Position numbers and translations under genes: made by a program. Under the pieces are notes generated by a model. It searched no databases, had not been told where the DNA came from, and was given only the letters and a program-made list of their open reading frames with translations. A stretch of DNA of 64,000 bases from Candidatus Cloacimonadales bacterium (GTDB lineage Bacteria; Cloacimonadota; Cloacimonadia; Cloacimonadales; JAIOQZ01), in NCBI GenBank assembly GCA_963665815.1, contig OY762463.1, positions 2,816,001-2,880,000 of the forward strand, read 5' to 3'. Positions 11,649-62,119 of the stretch are shown one piece after another. Every line of letters begins with the position of its first letter. The stretch's first letter is position 1.

Positions 11649-11779
11649 GTGGATTTCAGGTATAACTACTTTGTCATTAATGTTTTACAATTATTAATTT
11701 TTGTTAACAATTCCCTTATACTGGATTTAAGTTTCTCCGTAAAAATCTTGCATAACAAAGAATGATATTCGGAGGAATA

Positions 11780-12625
11780 ATGAAATTTAAAAGTTCAATA
11801 GTTATTTTAATGTTATTAGTTGCTTTTTCCGGTCTTTTTGCGGAAAAAATTACTCTTGATGGTTCAACAACAGTTGGTCCTATTGCGAAAGAATTTGCTG
11901 AATACTACATGCGCACAAATAAAGGCGTTAAAGTTGAAGTTAGTGAATCCGGTAGTGGAAACGGAGCTAAATCACTTATTAACAGCACTGCTGATATTGG
12001 TAACATGTCACGTTTTATGAAAGACAAAGAATTCAAAGCTGCAGTAGAAAAAGGTGTTAAACCTGTTGCACACGTAGTAGCTCTTGATGGTATTGCAGTT
12101 GTTGTAAACAAAAGAAACTCTGTGAAAGATCTTACAATTGAACAAATCCGTAAGATTTACATGGGCGAAATTACAAACTGGAAAGAAGTTGGCGGACCTA
12201 ACAAAGAAATCGTAATCATTTCCAGAGAATCCAACTCAGGAACACTTGATACTTTCAAAGGTTTTGTAATGACTACAAAAGAAAACGGTGAAAAAGTAAA
12301 ACACAAAATTACTCCTAAAGCTGAAAGCCAGGGATCAAACGGTGCGGTAAAACAATCAGTTCAAAAAACTGACAGTGCAATAGGATTCATCGGAATCGGA
12401 TTCATCGATAACTCGATCAAACCATTATCAATCAGTGGTATTAAAGCTACAGAAGCAAACGTTATGGCTGGTAAATATCCTATTTCAAGACCATTATTCA
12501 TGTTCACAAACGGTTATCCAAAAATCGGAACACACTTACACAAATTCATCTCTCTTTATTTGACAAAAGAAGGACAGAAACTGATCGAACAATCAGGTTA
12601 CATTCCTGTAACACAATACAGATAA
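11780..12625 (+). CDS. pstS: Phosphate ABC transporter substrate-binding protein
   Basis: DGSTTV, SGSGNG, RESNSGT, YPISRPLF; GGAGG SD before ATG 11780; first gene of pst operon. Confidence 0.93.
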   Translation: MKFKSSIVILMLLVAFSGLFAEKITLDGSTTVGPIAKEFAEYYMRTNKGVKVEVSESGSGNGAKSLINSTADIGNMSRFMKDKEFKAAVEKGVKPVAHVVALDGIAVVVNKRNSVKDLTIEQIRKIYMGEITNWKEVGGPNKEIVIISRESNSGTLDTFKGFVMTTKENGEKVKHKITPKAESQGSNGAVKQSVQKTDSAIGFIGIGFIDNSIKPLSISGIKATEANVMAGKYPISRPLFMFTNGYPKIGTHLHKFISLYLTKEGQKLIEQSGYIPVTQYR

Positions 12626-12631
12626 TAGATC

Positions 12632-13777
12632 ATGGAACAAAACAAAGAAACATCATTATATATGAGTGAAAGAGCGAGCCGTATACAGCGGCTCGGATCT
12701 TTACTCCTTCAGGGTGGACTGTTTGTAGTAACATCAATATCTATGATAACAGTTATTTTTATAATCATATTTATTGCTAAAGATGCTATACCTTATTTCC
12801 AGCTGAAAGGGTTTAAGGAATTTTTCACCAGCACAAACTGGTATCCGGCTTCTGATCCGGGTCAGTTTGGTTCACTGGCAATTTTCCTGGGATCATTTCT
12901 TGTTACGCTTGGAGCGATTCTCGTTTCAGTACCACTTGGAATCACATCTTCGATAACCCTCAGTGACATCCTGCCATTTTCAGTTAGACAATATGCAAAA
13001 CCGGTTATAGAAATTCTTGCAGCGATTCCTTCAGTTGCATATGGTTTCTTTGCACTGGTTATTTTTGCACCGATACTGCAGAATCAGGGTGGACAGCTTC
13101 TCGGAGCTGCTTCATGGGTTATTGGACTTCCGGTTTTCTTATTAGGGTCGCTTATATTGACCGATCTCATTCTGGATAAAATAGCAACCGGAAACAATCA
13201 TAAAGTATTAAATATTATAATCTTTGTTGTATTAGCAAGTATATCAATCTTCATTCTACATCGAATCAGCAGCTTTCTACATGGTTTGAAAATCCTCAGT
13301 GGTAGAAACGCTCTCAACGTTTCTATTATTCTCGGATTCATGAGTCTACCTACAATCGTCAGTGTTTCCGAAGATGCCCTGCAATCTGTCGGCAGAGAGT
13401 TGAGAGAAGGTAGTTACGCTCTGGGAGCAACCAGAGCAGAAACTCTTTTTAAAGTAGTACTTCCTGCAGCAAGCAGCGGTATTGTTTCAGCAGTAATTCT
13501 CGGAACTATGAGAGCTCTTGGGGAAACTATGGTAGTCTGGATGGCTTCCGGTAACTCTGCTCATATTCCGGAGCCCTGGTTTAATCTGCTTGAACCTGTA
13601 AGAACATTAACAGCAACTATTGCCGGAGATATGGGGGAAGCCGATCAGGTAACAGGATCAGCCAGATATCATGTTCTTTTTGCAATGGCGTTATGTTTAC
13701 TCGTTTTCTCATTTGTCAGTAATCTTCTGAGTGAGTGGATAGTTAATCGATCCAGAAGAAAAATGAGTGGAGAATAG
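12632..13777 (+). CDS. pstC: Phosphate ABC transporter permease
   Basis: EILAAIPSVAYG, EGSYALGAT, RALGETM; two extra internal TM segments. Confidence 0.92.
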   Translation: MEQNKETSLYMSERASRIQRLGSLLLQGGLFVVTSISMITVIFIIIFIAKDAIPYFQLKGFKEFFTSTNWYPASDPGQFGSLAIFLGSFLVTLGAILVSVPLGITSSITLSDILPFSVRQYAKPVIEILAAIPSVAYGFFALVIFAPILQNQGGQLLGAASWVIGLPVFLLGSLILTDLILDKIATGNNHKVLNIIIFVVLASISIFILHRISSFLHGLKILSGRNALNVSIILGFMSLPTIVSVSEDALQSVGRELREGSYALGATRAETLFKVVLPAASSGIVSAVILGTMRALGETMVVWMASGNSAHIPEPWFNLLEPVRTLTATIAGDMGEADQVTGSARYHVLFAMALCLLVFSFVSNLLSEWIVNRSRRKMSGE

Positions 13778-13779
13778 AT

Positions 13780-15516
13780 ATGCAATTACATACACGTAAA
13801 CTATTAGATAAAGCATTCAGCAGCTTTGGAATATTCTCTATCCTTATAATGGCTGCTGCTGTTCTGATTCTTATCGTCCCAATATTTGCAAAAGGGATTG
13901 GAGCTTTTTATTTTGACGGAACAATTGAGTTCAGAAAATTCCTGAATTACGAGTTTAATCGTGGAAATGCAGAAAAACTGGAAAAGGAAGTTGCAGAGTC
14001 AGATATTCCAAGAATTAAGGTTTTCAAAAGACTCAGAAAGTTCAAAGAAGAATTAGAATCCGGTAAGTATGATGAACATCCTGAATATGATAATTTTGAA
14101 TATTATCTGGACGAAATCAATGAGTATGTTGTAGGGCTTCTCGGACCTGAACCTCTATCTGTAGCAAGAGTATATGAATACAAGCGCTTTGATAAAATAC
14201 GTATGGAGTATGATGTTACAGAATTCAATACATTAAAAGAAAAAGTGGTATCCATAAAAAAAGATGCAGACACTGATGAACATCAGGATTTTTATGAAGG
14301 ACTTTTAAAGCACGTCGTTTTGATGGAATCCATGTTGACCAGAGATCCGCAGGAATTGGAAAACTTTGAGGTCACAAACAAAGTTTCAATTTCAGCATCA
14401 AAATTAGTTAAGAATATTCTGGATCATTTTGATAAGATTTTGGCATCTAATGATTATTCAGATTTCTATTCTGAAATTTATGATGTGACAGATCAGCTCA
14501 AAACAATTCTTCTTGATATAAGCTATCCTTTATTGACAGACCATGAGATGGTTACTATATCAGAAAAATACGGTAGAACAAGATGGGATGAAGTAGCTGA
14601 GAAAAAGCTGAGATTAGTTATATGTCGTGAAGAAGTAACGTACGATGATAATGGTGATTACCATGTCAGTTATCCACCGAGAGAAAATGATTTTAAAGGT
14701 ACATCCCTTGAAGGATTGTTTACGTTCTTCGAAAATAATATTAATAAAATGATGCTTCCGAGAAAGACAGTATATCTAAGATTTCTGTTTGATAAACCAA
14801 TCAACTCACACATGCTTGGAGGTATCTGGCCGGAAGTGCTTGGTACTCTGTATCTGACTTTCGGAGCAATGTTGTTTGCCGTTCCACTTGGAGTGATTGC
14901 AGCAATATATCTTACAGAATTCGCACCACAGAATAGAGTAATTACAGTATTGAGATCTTTCATAAACACACTTGCCGGTGTACCGAGTATTGTATTCGGT
15001 CTTTTCGGTCTGGCATTCTTTATTAATACCGTTGGTGTGTCACCTAATAAAAGTGTTATCGCCGGATCAATGACATTATCAATATTGATCCTTCCTACAA
15101 TTATCAGAGCATCTGAAGAAGCGATAAGATCAGTTCCCAAAACATATAAAGAAGCTGCTTTATCTCTTGGGGCCACAAAACTGTGGACTGTGATAACCGT
15201 GATACTGCCATCAGCACTGCCTGGTATATTAACCGGTATAGTTATCAGTATGGGAAGGGCAGCTGGAGAAACCGCACCAATCATTTTCACCGCTGCAGTC
15301 AGTGTGGGTCAAGCTCTTAAGCTTAATGAAGTTTTCTCTAACGGAACCCCGGCATTATCATGGAATATCTACAATCTGGCATCAGAACACCATAAAGTAG
15401 ATGAAATAAGGCACGTACAATTCGGTATGGTTTTGACACTGATCACATTAGTGATTTTACTGAATCTTGCAGCTATAATTATCAGGGCAAGAGTATCGAA
15501 GAATTTAAAACAATAA
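13780..15516 (+). CDS. pstA: Phosphate ABC transporter permease with large soluble insertion
   Basis: GGIWPEVLGT, LAGVPSIVFGLFG, EAALSLGAT, RAAGETAP; about 300 aa hydrophilic insert after the first TM helix. Confidence 0.9.
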   Translation: MQLHTRKLLDKAFSSFGIFSILIMAAAVLILIVPIFAKGIGAFYFDGTIEFRKFLNYEFNRGNAEKLEKEVAESDIPRIKVFKRLRKFKEELESGKYDEHPEYDNFEYYLDEINEYVVGLLGPEPLSVARVYEYKRFDKIRMEYDVTEFNTLKEKVVSIKKDADTDEHQDFYEGLLKHVVLMESMLTRDPQELENFEVTNKVSISASKLVKNILDHFDKILASNDYSDFYSEIYDVTDQLKTILLDISYPLLTDHEMVTISEKYGRTRWDEVAEKKLRLVICREEVTYDDNGDYHVSYPPRENDFKGTSLEGLFTFFENNINKMMLPRKTVYLRFLFDKPINSHMLGGIWPEVLGTLYLTFGAMLFAVPLGVIAAIYLTEFAPQNRVITVLRSFINTLAGVPSIVFGLFGLAFFINTVGVSPNKSVIAGSMTLSILILPTIIRASEEAIRSVPKTYKEAALSLGATKLWTVITVILPSALPGILTGIVISMGRAAGETAPIIFTAAVSVGQALKLNEVFSNGTPALSWNIYNLASEHHKVDEIRHVQFGMVLTLITLVILLNLAAIIIRARVSKNLKQ

Positions 15517-15526
15517 TGAGGTATAA

Positions 15527-16357
15527 ATGAGCGAAGGAAAATTTGTTTTTTCAACATCAGAATATAAATCTTTGAAAACAGGCGTTGTGATGCTGCCTGA
15601 AGAGCAGTCTCATCTGGTAGTAAATGATTTTTCAGTGTATTATGGTAAACATCAGGCAGTTAAAAATGTAACAGTGAATATCCCGAGAAAGAAAGTTACA
15701 GCCATTATTGGTCCAAGTGGATGTGGTAAAAGTACATTTCTCAGATCCATCAACAGAATGAACGATCTGATACCAGTATGTCACACAACAGGTGACTTAT
15801 TATATGAAAAGCAGAATATTTTCGATAAAAGAATAGATGTTGTTTTACTCAGGAAGAAGATTGGTATGGTGTTCCAGAAACCGAATCCATTTCCCAAAAG
15901 TATCTATGAGAACATCGTCTATAGCCCGAGACTACAGGGTAAAAGGAATAAAAAAGAACTGAATGAAATCGTAGAAAGGTGTCTGCGTGGTGCAGCTTTA
16001 TGGGATGAAGTCAAAGACAGACTTGATAAGAATGCTCTCGGACTATCAGGTGGACAGCAACAGAGATTATGCATTGCCAGAGCTCTGGCAGCTGATCCGG
16101 AAATCCTTTTGATGGACGAACCTACATCTGCACTTGATCCACAGGCTACCCTGAAAATTGAAAATCTGATAGACTCTCTCAGTAATGATTATACAATAGT
16201 AATAGTAACTCACAATATGTCTCAGGCTGCTCGTGTATCCGATTATACAGCTTTTTTCTATGAAGGCGTGCTGATAGAGTTTGCAGAAACTCAGAATGTC
16301 TTTGAGACACCAAACATTAAACAGACAGAAGATTATATAACCGGACGATTCGGATAG
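15527..16357 (+). CDS. pstB: Phosphate ABC transporter ATPase
   Basis: [42 protein letters not shown]. Confidence 0.96.
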
Positions 16358-45053: not shown

Positions 45054-46611
<1,558 letters not shown>

Positions 46612-46789
46612 ACGAATATTTCTAAAATTCAAAATTATATAATTATCTTCCTATCTCTCATTCCATTTCTATTCATCGTAATAGGGATAAATTGATCATT
46701 AAAAAAGTTTTAAATAGAAGTGAGATAGAGTGAAAGAGCGAAAAAGAGATAGCGATAAACAAAGCTAAAGAATTTTCACATTATAAAAG

Positions 46790-49700
<2,911 letters not shown>

Positions 49701-49744
49701 TATTTTATTCACTCTATCTCATACATTTTAGTCAGGCTATTAAT

Positions 49745-49858
49745 GTGGTGGTTTTGGCGGTGAGGTCACACCTGTACCCATCCCGAACACAGAAGTTAAG
49801 CTCACCTGCGCCGATGGTACTGCTTGGGAAACTGAGTGGGAGAGTAGGTCGCCGCCAC
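49745..49858 (+). rRNA. rrf: 5S ribosomal RNA
   Basis: CCCATCCCGAACAC, GCCGATGGTAC, GAGAGTAGG; terminal stem GTGGTGG/CCGCCAC. Confidence 0.97.
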
Positions 49859-49896
49859 TTTAATAGCCTGTCTTTTTTTTATCACTTATTTAACAC

Positions 49897-54795: not shown

Positions 54796-55042
54796 CAGGA
54801 TCTCCTTAATTAAGTTATTGCCATTCAATGAAAATATGTAATAATGTAAATGTATATTTTAGAAATATGCAGAGTATCAATAAATCCCGTAAATTGCATT
54901 ATAAATCTATTTTCATGGCAAAGTTGATTTGCAGTGATAAAGGTTTTTCTGCTTGTCTCTCGGCAATATTTTAAATAAATTCCATTTTTTTCTTTACAAG
55001 ATTTTGCTAAATGTAAGTATATTATGTATTAATGGAGGAAAA

Positions 55043-58000
55043 ATGAAGAAACTTATAATAGTAGCATTAATGTTGATAGTTTTGTTTTTGCATGCGGAAA
55101 CTATCAAGATTAATGATAATGAATTAGATATTACTGTATTGAATGAGAATGATAATGAAATCATTGTTCAATGCAGGTTTGGGGATTTTGATCTCTCAGA
55201 TCTTGAGTTTAAGGGAGAATCGTATAAAAGAATTAATTGGGGCAGGAATCCGTATATTCAGACAAAGGGTGCTCCTGATCTTCCCAAAGCAGTAAGATCA
55301 CTTATTATTGATGGAAAATCTTCATACAGGGTAGAGCTTGTCGAATCTGAATCTTCTGAATATGATTTAAATTTAATTTCATCCAGAGGAGTTGTTGGAA
55401 GGGATCTTGAATTATCTCAAGTTCCATATACTTTTTCAGACGTATATAAAAAGAACGAATTTTTTCCCGGAAAACTTTTTGATTTGGGAAAACCATATAT
55501 TTTCAGGGATTTCAGAGGTAGTACAATTACTTTTTATCCTTTCCAGTACAACCCTGTAACAAAATCACTTAAAGTGTACAATAATCTGATTGTTAAGATT
55601 ATAAAAACAGGGGCGGGGAGTATCAATGTTTTAAATAGTCCTGCACAAGGTATTTCTCCTGCATTCAGTGAAATATATCAGAATCACTTCATTAACTACA
55701 ACGAGACATTATATCCTCAGCTTGATGAAGTCGGAAGAATGCTTGTGGTCTGTCCTTCTACCTACATGGATGAGATTCAGCCATTTGTTGATTGGAAAAA
55801 TAGAAAAGGTATTGAAACAGATGTTGTTTCAATTGAAACTGTCGGCAATACTCCTGATCAGATTTTTCAGTATATTCAGAACGAGTATGTTTCAACACAG
55901 TTAGATAATCCTTTAACTTTTGTTCAACTGGTAGGTGATTCAGATGTAATGGCAACATTTACTCACCAGTATTTTAATGGTACTTCACATAGAGTCGGTT
56001 CAGCGGACCCTCTATATTCTCTTCTTTCAGGTACAGACAGTTATCCTGAGATATTTGTAGGTCGTTTTTCCTGTAACACTGAGGCTGAGCTTACTCTTCA
56101 AGTTCAAAAAACTATTGAATATGAAAGAGATCTTAATTCCGGAGACTGGCTTCATAAAGCGACCGGTATAGCCTCAAATCTCGGTACGAATCAGGGTGAT
56201 GATTTAGAAGCTGATAACGTACACATGGCGAATATTCGTACAGATCTTCTCAATTACAATTACACAGAAGTTGATACTCTTTATTCACCGTATGCAACAA
56301 CTGATATGGGTATGAATGCAATTAATTCAGGTCGTGGATTTATAAACTATGTTGGACATGGTTCAACTACTTCCTGGGTAAACGGTTCAAGACTTTTAAA
56401 TCAGGATATTGAATCTTTGACGAATGATAATATGCTTCCATTTGTGTTTTCCGTAGCCTGCCTTAATGGAAACTTTGCCGGTAATGACTGCTTTGCTGAA
56501 ACCTGGCTTAATGCTTCAAACGATCAGACAGGAGAACCAACCGGAGCTGTTGCATTTTACGGAGCTTCTGTAGCTCAGGCGTGGGCTCCGCCAATGTGTG
56601 CTCAAGATGAAACTACTGATTTACTGATTGCAGAAGAAGTATCTACTATTGGCGGTTTGTTCTATTCGGGATCGTGTCAGATGATTGATGAATATACATC
56701 TTATGATATTGGTGAAAACCTTTTCAAAACTTGGTTGATATTTGGAGATGCATCTTTACAGATTAGAACAGATACACCTGCTACAATGAATGTAAGCCAT
56801 GTTCAGACAATATATACTATTACTGAAAGTTTGATTGTTCAGACTAATACTACTGAAGCTCTTGTAGCTCTCAGTTATGACGGAGCTTTAATATCAGCAG
56901 GATATACTGATAATTCAGGGTCAGTAAATCTTGCCTGGAATGCAAACAATTTACCAGTAGCCCCTGCTGAACTAAAACTAACAGTAACAGCTTTTAACAA
57001 AATAACTTATAACGGAATTGTCCAGTTAACTCCACCCAATGGTCCATGCCTTACACTAAACAGTTATTCTACAGATAGTGCACCGGAATTTGATTCCATA
57101 TCCTTGATTTCCTTAGATGTGGAGAATTTCGGTAATGAATCTGGAAACAATATGAACTTTGTTCTCAGGACAACTGATGAGCATGTTGTTATAACTGACA
57201 GTACTGCGAATATAGCTCAGCTTGAATCCGGAAGTACTATGCAGATGAACGATGTATTCGAGATTCAGCTTTCAGATAATATACCTGATCAATACAATAT
57301 CCCATTTATTCTGAATGTTACAAGTGATGAATCAAGCTGGATGTTCCGCATGGAACTTGTTGCTAATGCACCAAGATTTTCAGTATCATCATTCAATATT
57401 ATTGATGACCCGGATGATGGCAATGATACTATTGAACCAGGAGAAAATCTGGCTCTTGAAATTGGTGTATCAAATTCCGGACATGCAGCTTCACAGGCTG
57501 GTTTCCTTAATCTTTTCTCACCTTCAGAAGCATTGATCTTTCTCGACAGAACATCTGATCTCACTGCATTACAGACAGGAGAAGAGCAAATCTTCCATTT
57601 CAATGTAAGAATTGCAGATTCAACATCGGCAGGAACTGTTCTTCCTGTTGGTATCACTGCTGAATCAGGAGCATATATGTCACACGAAAGCAGATTTGTT
57701 GACGTTGGAGCAATATTTGACGGCTTTGAAGACAGTCTTAATACTTTTAACTGGGTCATGGGTGGTAATTCTGACTGGCAGGTTGTATCTGAATATGTCT
57801 ATGAAGGCTTAAACTGTCTTGAATCGGGAAATACAGATACAGGTGAAACATCTGAGGTAATGTTCAGTGCAAATATTCCTGTGGATGGTATGTTCTCATT
57901 TTACAGGAAAGTATCCAGTATTCAAAACTTCAGTTATCTGGAGTTCTATATCGACAGCTCGATTGAAGGACAGTGGTCGGGGGAAACTGACTGGGAATAT

Positions 58001-58762
58001 GCTGAATTTTCAGTGGATGCCGGATATCATGAATTTAAATGGGTATACAGACACAGCCCATACATAATACAGGATCCTACTCAGAATAAGAGCTGGATTG
58101 ATAACATTAACATTCCAACAAACGGTAACTCTGTTACCGCATTGATGGCTGTTGAATCTAACGAGATCCAGTTTACAAGAGAAACCAATGTAGAACCGTT
58201 AAGAAGAGAATTATCAATCGTAAATTACGGTAATGTAGTACTTTCCGGTACAATGATTATTAACTCAGATGATTTTTATATCGAACAAAACGGAACAATT
58301 TACAGGAATCTGGATTTCAGTGTTCAACCTGAAACAGAATCTGTCTTCACTATTGTATACGATACTCAGGACAGTGGTACACATACAGGTACATTGACAA
58401 TAAATTCCAATGATCCATATTCTCCATTACTTGTAAATCTTACCGGTTCAACTAGTGTTGCCAATGGAGATGATGATTTGAACTTTGAGACAGGAATAAG
58501 CAGTATTTACCCTAATCCGTTCAATCCTGAAACAAATATCAGGTTTGCCTTGAAACAGGATTCTGATGTTGAGATTTCTGTCTATAATATAAAAGGACAG
58601 AAGGTCAAGACACTCAGAAGGGAACACTTTGTAAAAGGAGAACATGTTGTAACCTGGAAAGGTAAAGATAATAGCAATAGCGATGTTGGATCCGGAGTTT
58701 ATTTCATCAGGCTTAAAACCGGATCAACAGAACAGATTAGAAAAGCTATACTTCTCAAGTAG
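55043..58762 (+). CDS. Gingipain-like C25 cysteine peptidase with propeptide, Ig-like domains and FlgD-Ig/T9SS-A-like C-terminal domain
   Basis: GAPDLP and PFQYNP (C25 propeptide), LVGD, FVGRFS, NYVGHGS (His), SVACLNG (Cys), IFGDASL; YPNPFNPET CTD; GGAGG SD. Confidence 0.93.
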   Translation: MKKLIIVALMLIVLFLHAETIKINDNELDITVLNENDNEIIVQCRFGDFDLSDLEFKGESYKRINWGRNPYIQTKGAPDLPKAVRSLIIDGKSSYRVELVESESSEYDLNLISSRGVVGRDLELSQVPYTFSDVYKKNEFFPGKLFDLGKPYIFRDFRGSTITFYPFQYNPVTKSLKVYNNLIVKIIKTGAGSINVLNSPAQGISPAFSEIYQNHFINYNETLYPQLDEVGRMLVVCPSTYMDEIQPFVDWKNRKGIETDVVSIETVGNTPDQIFQYIQNEYVSTQLDNPLTFVQLVGDSDVMATFTHQYFNGTSHRVGSADPLYSLLSGTDSYPEIFVGRFSCNTEAELTLQVQKTIEYERDLNSGDWLHKATGIASNLGTNQGDDLEADNVHMANIRTDLLNYNYTEVDTLYSPYATTDMGMNAINSGRGFINYVGHGSTTSWVNGSRLLNQDIESLTNDNMLPFVFSVACLNGNFAGNDCFAETWLNASNDQTGEPTGAVAFYGASVAQAWAPPMCAQDETTDLLIAEEVSTIGGLFYSGSCQMIDEYTSYDIGENLFKTWLIFGDASLQIRTDTPATMNVSHVQTIYTITESLIVQTNTTEALVALSYDGALISAGYTDNSGSVNLAWNANNLPVAPAELKLTVTAFNKITYNGIVQLTPPNGPCLTLNSYSTDSAPEFDSISLISLDVENFGNESGNNMNFVLRTTDEHVVITDSTANIAQLESGSTMQMNDVFEIQLSDNIPDQYNIPFILNVTSDESSWMFRMELVANAPRFSVSSFNIIDDPDDGNDTIEPGENLALEIGVSNSGHAASQAGFLNLFSPSEALIFLDRTSDLTALQTGEEQIFHFNVRIADSTSAGTVLPVGITAESGAYMSHESRFVDVGAIFDGFEDSLNTFNWVMGGNSDWQVVSEYVYEGLNCLESGNTDTGETSEVMFSANIPVDGMFSFYRKVSSIQNFSYLEFYIDSSIEGQWSGETDWEYAEFSVDAGYHEFKWVYRHSPYIIQDPTQNKSWIDNINIPTNGNSVTALMAVESNEIQFTRETNVEPLRRELSIVNYGNVVLSGTMIINSDDFYIEQNGTIYRNLDFSVQPETESVFTIVYDTQDSGTHTGTLTINSNDPYSPLLVNLTGSTSVANGDDDLNFETGISSIYPNPFNPETNIRFALKQDSDVEISVYNIKGQKVKTLRREHFVKGEHVVTWKGKDNSNSDVGSGVYFIRLKTGSTEQIRKAILLK

Positions 58763-59520: not shown

Positions 59521-61149
59521 TTATCCCATAAATGGATATTTATAGTCTGTAGGCGGTGTGAATGTCTCTTTGACAGTTCTTGGAGATACCCACCTCTGAA
59601 GGTTAATAATTGATCCGGCTTTATCATTCGTACCTGACCCTCTACCTCCACCAAATGGCTGTTGCCCTACTACTGCTCCTGTTGGTTTATCATTAACATA
59701 GAAGTTTCCGGCAGCATTTCTCAATTTATCAAATGCTTTGATAATTGCCTGTCTGTCCTGAGCAAAAACAGCTCCTGTAAGAGCGTAAGGAGATGTACGG
59801 TCACAGATATCGAGAATTTCGTCGTAGGTCTCATCATTATAAACATACACTGTGAGCACAGGAGCAAATATCTCTTCCTGCATAGTTTTGTAGAATGGAG
59901 AATCAGCTTTGATGATTGTAGGAGTGATGAAGTAGCCTTTACTGTCATTATATGTTCCACCATATATAATCTCCGCATGCTCATCTTCTCTGGCATGCTC
60001 AATATAGGATACTGTGTTCTCAAAAGCTCTTTTATCTATGACTGCATTCACAAAGCATGAAAAGTCCTGAACAGGTCCAATTTTAATTTCATAGAGCATT
60101 TTAAAGACTTTATCCTTTACATCATTCCATAAACATCCTGGTATATAGAGTCGTGATAAAGCAGAACACTTCTGACCCTGATACTCAAAAGCTCCTCTGA
60201 CAATAGCAGTTGCCAGACTATCAACGTCAGCAGATTCATGAGCAATCAGGAAATCCTTTCCACCTGTTTCACCAACAATTCTCGGGTAGCTTTTATAATT
60301 ACGAATATTGTCTCCAATTCTTTTCCACATTGCCCCAAAAACATCTGTTGAACCGGTGAAGTGGAGACCGGCAAATAGTTCTGAGTCAAGAGCCGGATTA
60401 CCTACATTAGCTCCACTTCCCGGAAGGAAGTTTATGACTCCATCAGGAAGTCCGGCTTCCTTGAGAAGCTTCATTATGAAATAACCGGATAACACTGCCG
60501 TTGATGCTGGTTTCCAGAGTACAACATTACCCATCATTGCCGGAGCAGTTGGCAGGTTTCCCGCAATAGCTGTGAAGTTAAAAGGAGTAACACAGAAAAT
60601 ATAGCCTTCCAGAGGACGGTATTCAATGTAGTTCAGGGTTCCTCTCGGAGAGTGTGTTGGCTGTTGCTTAAAGATTTCCTGCATGTAATACGTGTTGAAC
60701 CGCCAGAAATCAATCAGCTCTGCTGCAGAGTCAATTTCTGCTTGATAAGCATTCTTACTCTGTCCCAGCATTGTGGCAGCATTAAGTGTAAAGCGATACT
60801 TGGTAGATAGCAGTTCGGCAGCTTTAATGAATATAGCAGCTTTCATCTGATAAGGTATTTTCTCCCATTCTGCTTTTGCTTTCTGGGATTCTTCAATTGC
60901 CATTCGCACTTCATTTTCTCCGGCTTTGTGGAATGTGGCCAGAACATTTTTGTGATTGTGGGGTTCGATGCATTTCCCAAGATCACCGGTACGTATTTCT
61001 TTTCCACCGATAATTAATGGGATTTCAAGGTTAAGATTTGTCAGTCGATCGAGTTCTTTTTTGAGCTCAATTCGCTCAGGAGAACCGGGTGAATAATCCA
61101 GTAATTTTTCATTCATCGGTTCCTTAAAACTGATTATAGTGTTTAACAC
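59521..61149 (-). CDS. pruA: 1-pyrroline-5-carboxylate (glutamate semialdehyde) dehydrogenase
   Basis: QAEIDSAAELIDFWRFN, PFNFTAI, HFTGST, GETGGKDF, FEYQGQKCSA, QPFGG.R.SGTNDKAG; GTG start with GGAGG SD. Confidence 0.96.
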   Translation of the reverse strand: MLNTIISFKEPMNEKLLDYSPGSPERIELKKELDRLTNLNLEIPLIIGGKEIRTGDLGKCIEPHNHKNVLATFHKAGENEVRMAIEESQKAKAEWEKIPYQMKAAIFIKAAELLSTKYRFTLNAATMLGQSKNAYQAEIDSAAELIDFWRFNTYYMQEIFKQQPTHSPRGTLNYIEYRPLEGYIFCVTPFNFTAIAGNLPTAPAMMGNVVLWKPASTAVLSGYFIMKLLKEAGLPDGVINFLPGSGANVGNPALDSELFAGLHFTGSTDVFGAMWKRIGDNIRNYKSYPRIVGETGGKDFLIAHESADVDSLATAIVRGAFEYQGQKCSALSRLYIPGCLWNDVKDKVFKMLYEIKIGPVQDFSCFVNAVIDKRAFENTVSYIEHAREDEHAEIIYGGTYNDSKGYFITPTIIKADSPFYKTMQEEIFAPVLTVYVYNDETYDEILDICDRTSPYALTGAVFAQDRQAIIKAFDKLRNAAGNFYVNDKPTGAVVGQQPFGGGRGSGTNDKAGSIINLQRWVSPRTVKETFTPPTDYKYPFMG

Positions 61150-61227
61150 TTTTCCTCCAAAATTTTATTATTACTTTGGAGACGAAGTCAGAATGAGGGT
61201 ACTATGAGCCTGTAACAGTCTCATTCC

Positions 61228-61330
61228 TTTCGCCTTTCCAAGCACGGGAGGCATAACTGTTTCCGGTTATACCCTATCGGTAATCCGTCATGTCCTATAT
61301 GGATTTAGACTGCAATTACTCGGCGTTTAT
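61228..61330 (-). ncRNA. Moco/Tuco riboswitch aptamer (P3-lacking form)
   Basis: - strand: CGCCGA-GTAAT..CTAA..ATTAC-CGAT-AGGGT-ATAAC-CGGAAAC-AGTTAT-GCCTCCCGTGCTTGGAAAGGCG; matches the AGGG...GAAAC...GCCTCCCGT....GGAAAGG hallmark of the Moco RNA motif. Confidence 0.85.
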
Positions 61331-61334
61331 AGAG

Positions 61335-61362
61335 AAACTAAATAATACAGGTTTCATGTCAA
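61335..61362 (-). promoter_or_regulatory. Putative sigma-70 promoter for riboswitch-pruA transcript
   Basis: TTGACA-16 nt-TAGTTT on - strand ending a few nt before the aptamer. Confidence 0.5.
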
Positions 61363-61449
61363 GTACAGTTCCTATTTCCTGCAGAAAAACATTGATATTA
61401 ATGCACAATTGAATATCTTATATAGACAAAAATAAATATGGAGAACGAA

Positions 61450-61857
61450 ATGCTTATAAAACCCATAAATACAGTTGTCTGTACCGAAGACTTCAAGAAA
61501 ATGCTGGATTGGTATATCAATACATTCGATATGGAACCAATTTACTTTAAAGGTATGGAGAACAGCTATGTAGATCTGAAATCCGGAGATAAAATCCTGA
61601 TCGGCATGAGTGCTTACAATTCGGAAGATGAACCTTTATACAATCCGAGACGAAATGCTACTTACATGCAGATTTCATGCAGTCACATCTTTACTCTTTT
61701 TGACAGAGTTAAGAACACAGGAGGAGAGGTGATGTTTGGACCTTCTCAGGATACAGGTTACTGGTATGGTGGAATTAAAGATCCGGAAGGTAATACAATC
61801 TGGGTATTCACTCCTGATGAAGACCTGAAAGAAGATATACCGCCAGAGCTTAAGTAG
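61450..61857 (+). CDS. VOC/glyoxalase-family protein
   Basis: WY...F, GG.V..GP, IKDPEGN; start 61450 (GGAG upstream) or 61438. Confidence 0.8.
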   Translation: MLIKPINTVVCTEDFKKMLDWYINTFDMEPIYFKGMENSYVDLKSGDKILIGMSAYNSEDEPLYNPRRNATYMQISCSHIFTLFDRVKNTGGEVMFGPSQDTGYWYGGIKDPEGNTIWVFTPDEDLKEDIPPELK

Positions 61858-61885: not shown

Positions 61886-62119
61886 TTATTTAATCTCTCC
61901 CATTCTTTTCAGAAAGAGGTAGAAGTCTTCAACTTTCTGTCTTGCCCAAGGGGTTTTACGTAGAAACTTGAGGCTTGAGTTGATTGAAGGATCATTTTTG
62001 AAACAGTTAATGTTTATATGTTTTCCAAGATCATCCCAACCACAATAGTCTACAAGTGAGTTGAGAATCATCTTCAGTGTTTTTCCGTGCAGGGGATTGT
62101 TTGCGTTTTTATTGTCCAT
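61886..62119 (-). CDS. VF530/DUF2132-family small DNA-binding protein
   Basis: [36 protein letters not shown]. Confidence 0.9.

Follow-up and report, generated by a model that had tools for sequence, protein, structure and literature searches.

Why should a gene for a nicotinamide adenine dinucleotide (NAD)-dependent dehydrogenase that needs no pterin cofactor lie behind a riboswitch of the molybdenum/tungsten cofactor (Moco/Tuco) class? The question is raised by a stretch of 64,000 nucleotides (nt) from the genome of a Candidatus Cloacimonadales bacterium (contig OY762463.1; this whole stretch is called the window below), in which pruA, encoding L-glutamate gamma-semialdehyde (1-pyrroline-5-carboxylate, P5C) dehydrogenase, is preceded by a Moco/Tuco aptamer that lacks helix P3. 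We consider it probable, at roughly 60%, that the riboswitch in this monocistronic leader acts as a translational OFF switch, so that the NAD-linked enzyme is made when the cofactor is scarce. The sequences show the aptamer, the retention of its place in front of pruA, and a covarying hairpin predicted to sequester the Shine-Dalgarno (SD) sequence; the OFF direction and the ligand are what we infer.

The original prediction, made from the letters of the window, had placed a Moco-motif aptamer without P3 at 61330–61228. This span proved to be the core of a longer match to the Rfam family RF01055 (Table 1), which scores 74.6 bits in cmscan against a gathering score of 36 (E = 3.5e-16) and is returned in the same form by a whole-genome search. 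The match covers model positions 1–135 without truncation and is 123 nt long versus the 135 positions of the model, with the P3 columns deleted and P2 continuing via CCG-A into UAGGG. In the Rfam alignment the P4 loop is GGAAAC and the core CCUCCCGUGCUUGGAAAGGCG is present, with some non-canonical pairs marked in P1 and P2. Judged by its sequence, which contains the conserved CCUCCC...GGAAAGG core as well as P1, P2, the GNRA loop of P4, and P5, the element is a true RF01055 member of the P3-less kind. That it would sense the tungsten form of the cofactor is suggested by the published correlation of the P3-less subtype with use of the tungsten cofactor (PMC2408646).

The gene that follows at a distance of 65 nt on the same strand starts with a GTG codon at 61149, as read from the sequence. 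Its product matches the L-glutamate gamma-semialdehyde dehydrogenase model TIGR01236 at 789.3 bits (equivalog cut-off 613.6), as well as Pfam Aldedh, and its closest solved structure is the P5C dehydrogenase 4idm (E = 2e-185). The segments VGETGGKDF and FEYQGQKCSA, comprising the catalytic Glu and Cys motifs, align with those of solved P5C dehydrogenases. By these matches the product is a P5C dehydrogenase of the TIGR01236/ALDH4A1 type, and its earlier description as a metal-independent enzyme agrees with its place among the NAD-dependent members of the aldehyde dehydrogenase (ALDH) family. As such, pruA belongs to none of the gene classes usually expected in this regulon, namely Mo/W transport, cofactor synthesis, and cofactor-dependent enzymes. 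Since the downstream gene is convergent, pruA stands alone; the GC-rich hairpin right after its stop codon has no T run and was not called a terminator by the terminator scan, and it may mark the end of the transcript.

The placement of the aptamer was followed through 151 sampled genomes from the phylum, in which G000 is the genome of the window and G001 that of a sister species (families, contigs, and loci carry the letters f, C, and L). RF01055 gives about 159 matches, 150 of them listed, in 105 of the 151 genomes, and PruA, at a cut-off of E 1e-100 or better, is found in 79. A comparison of coordinates among the matches listed gave a same-strand aptamer 35–210 nt upstream of pruA in 26 genomes, and G075 and G131 joined them when the regions upstream of pruA in 10 more genomes were scanned directly with Rfam, the other eight being negative. 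The aptamer thus stands on pruA in at least 28 of the 79 pruA genomes, belonging to three families (f1, 5/5; f2, 22/35; f7, 1/4), and in none of f3, f4, f6, f9, f13, f14, and f15 among the matches listed and the 10 scanned regions. The scores of these aptamers range from 43.9 bits in G075 to 75.5 bits, all except G075 reaching at least 51 bits. The concern that the RNA might precede, in relatives, a Mo/W gene that was deleted here is answered by these genomes, in which it lies directly before pruA itself. Outside the phylum sample, PruA loci were taken from named genomes across many phyla, and the 80 best were searched with nhmmer and 20 of these also with Rfam; the sole aptamer-bearing locus, L164, comes from an uncultured Candidatus Cloacimonas sp. 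The position of the aptamer in front of pruA is conserved, and it is under selection.

In two f13 genomes, G029 (C47, L078) and G040 (C100, L030), a riboswitch lies beside pruA in divergent orientation and faces a gene for a substrate-binding (S)-like component of an energy-coupling factor (ECF) transporter. This divergent layout may be the original state, a local duplication having then given rise to the pruA switch.

The region between aptamer and start codon carries the second part of the argument. Reading of the sequence placed TTGACA, the GAATGAG/CTCATTC hairpin, CTCCAAAG (61181–61174), TTTTGGAG (61162–61155), and GTG just where they had been predicted, and the pairing of CTCCAAAG with TTTTGGAG had been proposed to occlude the SD of pruA. 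To mimic the closed, ligand-bound aptamer, the segment downstream of P1 was folded alone, with an unpaired probability below 0.1 counted as paired. Under these conditions the GGAG of the SD is predicted to be paired in 22 of 25 pruA leaders (median unpaired probability 0.00), and shuffling of the linker raises the median to 0.30. The flank of the SD covaries with the anti-SD arm, as UCCAAAG/UUUUGGA in f1, CCUUUU/AAAAGG in f2, CCUAU/AUAGG in G007, and CCUUUAU/AUAAAGG in G128, so that the proposed occlusion is supported by both prediction and covariation. A different design is found in G036, where GGAG is part of P1 itself, in its 3' strand, and stands 8 nt ahead of ATG; this design would be equivalent in outcome to the sequestor hairpin.

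In the minimum-free-energy (MFE) fold of the whole leader of the window, an alternative long hairpin is predicted, in which the 3' part of the aptamer, GCUUGGAAAGGCGAAAGGAAUGAG, pairs with the linker CUCAUUC..CUUCGUC..UCCAAAG and captures the anti-SD arm. The leader is more stably folded than its shuffled versions (z = -2.69, 1 of 200 shuffles as good). A simple scan revealed no intrinsic terminator in the pruA leader, and there is no U run after the sequestor hairpin. The aptamer is itself not free to drift: in 18 pruA aptamers of f2, a compensatory change in P5 from CC/GG to UC/GA makes the 3' segment of the aptamer (GAAAAGG) mimic the SD flank, and since the change keeps P5 paired, the aptamer itself stays under constraint.

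Leaders of other genes behind the same riboswitch help in reading the direction of the switch. With the aptamer closed, the SD is predicted to be paired in 52 of 71 leaders of lipoprotein genes and in 7 of 13 leaders of ECF genes, and the lipoprotein leader of G000 (…CUUGCCUUCAAAAAAA…UUUUUUGGAGG) is almost identical to the pruA leaders of G012 and G117. Genes for uptake should be turned down by the cofactor that they bring in, and we therefore read the platform they share with pruA as an OFF switch. The SD is paired in only 1 of 8 leaders of genes of the aldehyde:ferredoxin oxidoreductase (AOR) family (median 0.48), which have no sequestor and in which the SD follows P1 at a median of 21 nt. 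In L003, L113, L019, L068, and other AOR leaders, the SD, AAGGAGG, is located ~10–20 nt past the P1 3' strand GGAAAGGAG, which is itself SD-like. The P1 5' strand (CUCC) could serve as the anti-SD in these leaders, which would make them ON switches.

The genes behind the riboswitch were classed by clustering and by Pfam and NCBIfam models, taking the first gene downstream of each of the 150 matches listed. It encodes a lipoprotein of ~270 residues with no Pfam match in 79 cases, PruA in 26, an ECF S-like component (PF09819) in 20, and an AOR-family protein in nine. Binding proteins account for four further cases (SBP_bac_11, three; PBP_like_2, one), and L-piperidine-6-carboxylate (P6C) dehydrogenase, ferredoxin, and [FeFe] hydrogenase for two each; four are unassigned, one has no open reading frame (ORF), and one lies at a contig edge for which the DNA was not fetched. 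The two hydrogenase genes, of a group A6-like type (L131 in G033 and L143 in G067), are 233–267 nt away from the aptamer, and neither genome has an AOR match.

The genome of the window, a single contig of 3.96 Mb estimated to be 98.66% complete, contains four RF01055 matches. Besides the copy before pruA, a P3-less aptamer of 82.3 bits precedes, by ~157 nt, the gene of a 515-residue ALDH-family protein identified as P6C dehydrogenase (NF050084, 781 bits compared with a cut-off of 730), whose SD is also predicted to be sequestered when the aptamer is closed. The same arrangement is present in the sister species G001. The third copy precedes an AOR-family gene, behind which lie MoaD/ThiS-like and ThiF/MoeB-like genes, and the fourth an uptake-type operon led by a lipoprotein gene. 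Two of the four switches thus precede NAD-dependent dehydrogenases of amino-acid semialdehydes.

Occurrence of the pruA aptamer follows that of AOR. AOR-family genes are present in 108 of the 151 genomes, in a family pattern nearly that of the riboswitch, and in 27 of the 28 genomes found with an aptamer on pruA. Among the matches listed and the 10 scanned regions, the aptamer stands on pruA in 27 of 40 pruA genomes with AOR versus 1 of 39 without it. The genome of the window, for which a check for AOR genes had been proposed, does contain them, two in number, together with one PF00384 gene. The neighborhoods of the AOR-like genes encoding 710–725 residues, in G000 and G003, include a ferredoxin gene, and in G000 also a sigma-54 activator. 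Both non-Mo/W enzymes under the switch in G000 oxidize aldehydes, and the tungsten-type enzymes are aldehyde oxidoreductases. In the reading best supported by these data, the NAD-linked PruA and P6C dehydrogenase would take over where AOR is inactive for lack of cofactor, which supposes that AOR and PruA overlap in function, with AOR oxidizing glutamate or aminoadipate semialdehyde. Of the cofactor-sparing switch as originally proposed, the repression half is strengthened by the covarying sequestor, the likeness to the uptake leaders, the P6C dehydrogenase copy, and the presence of AOR in 27 of the 28 genomes; the other half, replacement of PruA by AOR, is still a supposition.

The supply of the cofactor gives this logic a possible background. 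Searches for MoaA-C, MoaC, MoaE, and MoeA_N, each of which matched 11 of 14 control genomes, gave no match in G000, and its lone MoCF_biosynth match falls in an ORF of 405 residues. The tup or wtp genes expected in the original prediction were not found either: searches with PBP_like_2 (PF12849) and SBP_bac_11 (PF13531) revealed no TupA, ModA, or WtpA tungstate/molybdate-binding protein in G000, and the lone match of these models, considered as a tungstate transporter, was rejected as PstS (TIGR02136, 288 bits; window 11762–12625). Since no cofactor-synthesis genes were detected, G000 probably scavenges the cofactor, and under scavenging a fallback for cofactor-dependent enzymes makes sense. 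Across the phylum sample, 12 of the 151 genomes match MoeA_N and 11 match MoaA-C, with 11 in common (all six of f12, G041, G054, G068, G108, and G127; G146 has MoeA_N only), and in G041, G054, G068, and G108 the riboswitch precedes a classical binding-protein gene. By gene content, most of the phylum seems incapable of making a cofactor that it both uses and senses.

The operon behind the fourth copy in G000 is a candidate system for the uptake of a ready-made Mo/W pterin cofactor. It encodes the lipoprotein (609 residues in G000, ~270 in relatives), a PF09819 ECF S-like component, a protein with a weak Oxidored_molyb match, a phosphodiesterase-like protein, two ATP-binding cassette (ABC) ATPases, a TonB-dependent receptor, and a CbiQ-type T component. 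For the common lipoprotein, AlphaFold gave, from 47 sequences, a model with a predicted local distance difference test score (pLDDT) of 94.2. Comparison of this model with 48,161 chains by VIA-align returned, as the ten best, only Moco domains of the sulfite-oxidase type or PruR pterin-binding proteins, covering residues 125–234 with Z from 10.3 to 6.0 (the next being 5.0); SoxC gave Z = 10.3, with 104 residues superposed at a root-mean-square deviation of 2.8, and PruR with neopterin Z = 9.5. A Foldseek search of the pdb agrees on this fold, with weak E-values (best 2.7e-3). The modeled fold, combined with the lack of synthesis genes, suggests that most of the phylum scavenges the finished pterin cofactor. 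We can speculate further, and only tentatively, that most of the phylum imports the finished W/Mo pterin by means of the lipoprotein, an ECF-type transporter, and the TonB-dependent receptor, and that the same riboswitch toggles between AOR on one side and PruA or P6C dehydrogenase on the other.

The mechanism of the proposed OFF switch would be as follows. With the cofactor bound, the aptamer would hold its own 3' segment (UUGGAAAGGCG...), leaving the anti-SD arm UCUCCAAAG free to pair with UUUUGGAGG and to hide the ribosome-binding site. Without the ligand, the 3' segment of the aptamer would pair instead with the linker and the anti-SD arm, by which the SD would be released. PruA, and in this genus also P6C (aminoadipate-semialdehyde) dehydrogenase, would then be made mainly under cofactor scarcity, a condition under which the tungsten-type AORs could not work.

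Several observations weigh against this reading. The unconstrained ensemble of the window's own leader keeps the SD paired (unpaired probability 0.01), with the 5' strand UUUCUCUA, as does the MFE fold; the sister species lacks this pairing with the 5' strand, and unconstrained values in f2 leaders are higher, up to 0.85. The duplex between the anti-SD arm and the 3' segment of the aptamer has a median energy of -5.3 kcal/mol compared with -3.4 kcal/mol for shuffled arms, and in just 4 of 25 leaders were no more than 10 of 200 shuffles as good. Among the matches listed, 51 of the 79 pruA genomes have no aptamer on the gene, 13 of these with AOR, and G075 has the pruA aptamer and no AOR match. 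Because the genomes are related and not independent, counts such as 28 of 79 overstate the support. No recognized genes of ornithine, proline, or lysine breakdown are found in the AOR neighborhoods of G000 and G003, and the genome contains no detectable proline dehydrogenase as a source of P5C, which would probably be formed from ornithine or arginine.

Such observations can be accommodated to different degrees by other explanations. The switch might repress pruA as part of a wider, cofactor-tied re-wiring of metabolism and not as a substitution for AOR, for example in detoxifying reactive P5C and P6C or in diverting redox flow and the fermentation of arginine, ornithine, or lysine. The missing amino-acid catabolic genes around AOR fit such a re-wiring, as do the two aptamers upstream of the [FeFe] hydrogenase genes and the P3-less riboswitches before iron transporters and FocA in Eubacterium limosum (PMC11725836); nevertheless we find it unlikely, as both non-Mo/W enzymes act on amino-acid semialdehydes and the tungsten enzymes on aldehydes, and this shared substrate chemistry is the simplest link. 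The paired SD in the unconstrained fold of the window's leader would also be expected of an ON switch, or one of unclear direction, in which the cofactor opens the SD and PruA is made alongside the tungsten enzymes. However, the anti-SD hairpin forms with the aptamer closed in 22 of 25 leaders, the SD of G036 is inside P1, which ligand binding stabilizes, and the same platform is found on uptake genes, for which induction by imported cofactor would be odd, making this alternative improbable.

The scarcity of synthesis genes in turn allows a different ligand to be envisaged, namely another pterin or a precursor sensed by the P3-less aptamers of a phylum in which most genomes are unable to make molybdopterin. 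MoeA_N and MoaA-C, in 12 and 11 genomes, are indeed far rarer than the aptamer, in 105, and the lipoprotein encoded by the commonest regulated gene has among its best fold matches PruR, whose structure was solved with neopterin and which is a putative pterin-binding protein. However, the aptamer matches the conserved core in full, the rest of the regulon consists of AOR, WtpA/TupA-like binding proteins, and operons holding moeA, and P3-less forms are linked with Tuco by the published correlation (PMC2408646), so that we regard a different ligand as very improbable. The f13 layout in G029 and G040, with the riboswitch beside pruA facing the ECF S-component gene, and the score of just 43.9 bits in G075 are what a decaying, non-regulatory by-product of a duplicated uptake-operon leader might leave behind; retention before pruA in at least 28 genomes of three families, at 51 bits or more in all but G075, and the compensatory changes seen both in P5 and within the sequestor make such decay hardly credible. 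Repression of pruA by the bound cofactor is thus the reading that we retain.

The remaining elements of the leader and of the window are collected in Table 1. TTGAC is found 19–24 nt before the aptamer match in all 26 of the pruA leaders printed, as cTTGAC in 25 and as aTTGAC in G036, and no standard -10 element lies at 17 nt from the TTGACA of the window. More generally, cTTGAC at a fixed distance, as in the region 61341–61362 of the window, precedes nearly all aptamers of the pruA and lipoprotein classes, again with no sigma-70-like -10 at 17-nt spacing, and the promoter architecture of the phylum may be different.

Table 1. Coordinates of the features discussed; positions are those of the window unless a genome contig (C1) or a locus (L) is named.
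Feature	Position	Strand	Remarks
TTGACA, -35-like motif	61357–61362	-	Read from sequence
Moco/Tuco aptamer (RF01055)	61215–61337	-	Rfam cmscan; P1, P2, P4 (GAAA loop), P5, no P3; copy 1 of G000, before pruA
GAAUGAG/CUCAUUC hairpin	61191–61226	-	GAATGAG 61226–61220, CTCATTC 61197–61191; 5' arm overlaps outer 3' P1 strand
Alternative long hairpin (anti-sequestor)	61173–61244	-	Predicted; MFE fold of whole leader
Weak promoter-like site inside leader	61162–61191	-	Score 9/12
Anti-SD arm UCUCCAAAG	61174–61182	-	Pairs with 61162–61153 when downstream segment is folded alone
SD region UUUUGGAGGA	61153–61162	-	GGAGG 61158–61154, 4 nt before GTG; predicted unpaired probability 0.00, aptamer closed
pruA, NAD-dependent P5C dehydrogenase	59521–61149	-	ORF of 542 residues, monocistronic
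GC-rich hairpin after pruA stop codon	59489–59511	-	Read from sequence
Gene upstream of pruA, glyoxalase fold	61438–61857	+	Divergent from pruA
VF530 DNA-binding protein	61886–62119		
C25 (gingipain-type) peptidase	54953–58762		1269 residues; sorting domain of the type IX secretion system (T9SS)
Complete rRNA operon (16S, 23S, 5S)	45054–49860		
PstS gene, then three further ORFs	11762–16357		Only PstS scanned; may be a pst operon
Copy 2 of G000, P3-less aptamer	C1:716557–716678		Before P6C dehydrogenase
P6C dehydrogenase	L005 1337–2884		
Copy 3 of G000			Before AOR-family gene
Copy 4 of G000, lipoprotein-led operon	C1:1382108–1391200 (L007 1109–10154)		Candidate cofactor uptake

Cofactor-sensing riboswitches that turn on a cofactor-independent substitute enzyme are textbook knowledge for vitamin B12, where metE and nrd are examples of riboswitch-controlled isozymes. 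In the literature searched, no Mo/W-cofactor counterpart of the B12 isozyme switch was found described, and full texts, with supplements unopened, in no case linked aldehyde dehydrogenase, AOR, or P5C dehydrogenase to the riboswitch. If the tentative reading of import and toggling given above is true, no cofactor-sparing isozyme switch would be known before this one for Moco/Tuco, nor any earlier route by which bacteria take up the finished cofactor. A case conserved in at least 28 genomes offers a handle on how syntrophic amino-acid fermenters meet a shortage of tungsten cofactor, as well as on the in vivo role of these AOR-family enzymes and on the ligand of P3-less aptamers. Taken with the synthesis genes that seem to be lacking, the case suggests that cofactor is shared in anaerobic communities, which bears on the dosing of trace metals in anaerobic digesters.

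Comparison with the Moco RNA motif described by Regulski et al. 2008 (RF01055, exemplified by the E. coli moaABCDE leader; PMC2408646) reveals the same aptamer architecture and core, the same location in a 5' leader, and, by prediction, the hiding of the ribosome-binding site. The gene regulated here differs, since its product depends on NAD and works without a pterin cofactor, and it also departs from the usual setting of P5C dehydrogenase in having no proline dehydrogenase partner found in the genome. The Tuco regulon of E. limosum, with P3-less switches before WOR1 (an AOR-family enzyme), TupABC, iron transporters, and FocA (PMC11725836), is similar in its P3-less RF01055 aptamers, in its reach beyond Mo/W genes, and in its sequestors and antisequestors of the ribosome-binding site, both of which are predicted here. 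E. limosum makes its own cofactor and imports tungstate via TupABC, whereas G000 has no detectable synthesis or TupA genes, and the available text of that study (PMC11725836) reports no cofactor-independent counterpart enzyme. Such counterparts are known from the cobalamin riboswitches, for which the survey of Sun et al. 2013 (PMC3766115), in the text available, names an isozyme category for B12 only. Those riboswitches on isozymes of B12-dependent enzymes differ from the one described here in RNA class and in cofactor, and share with it the OFF-switch logic that would be applied to a cofactor-independent enzyme.

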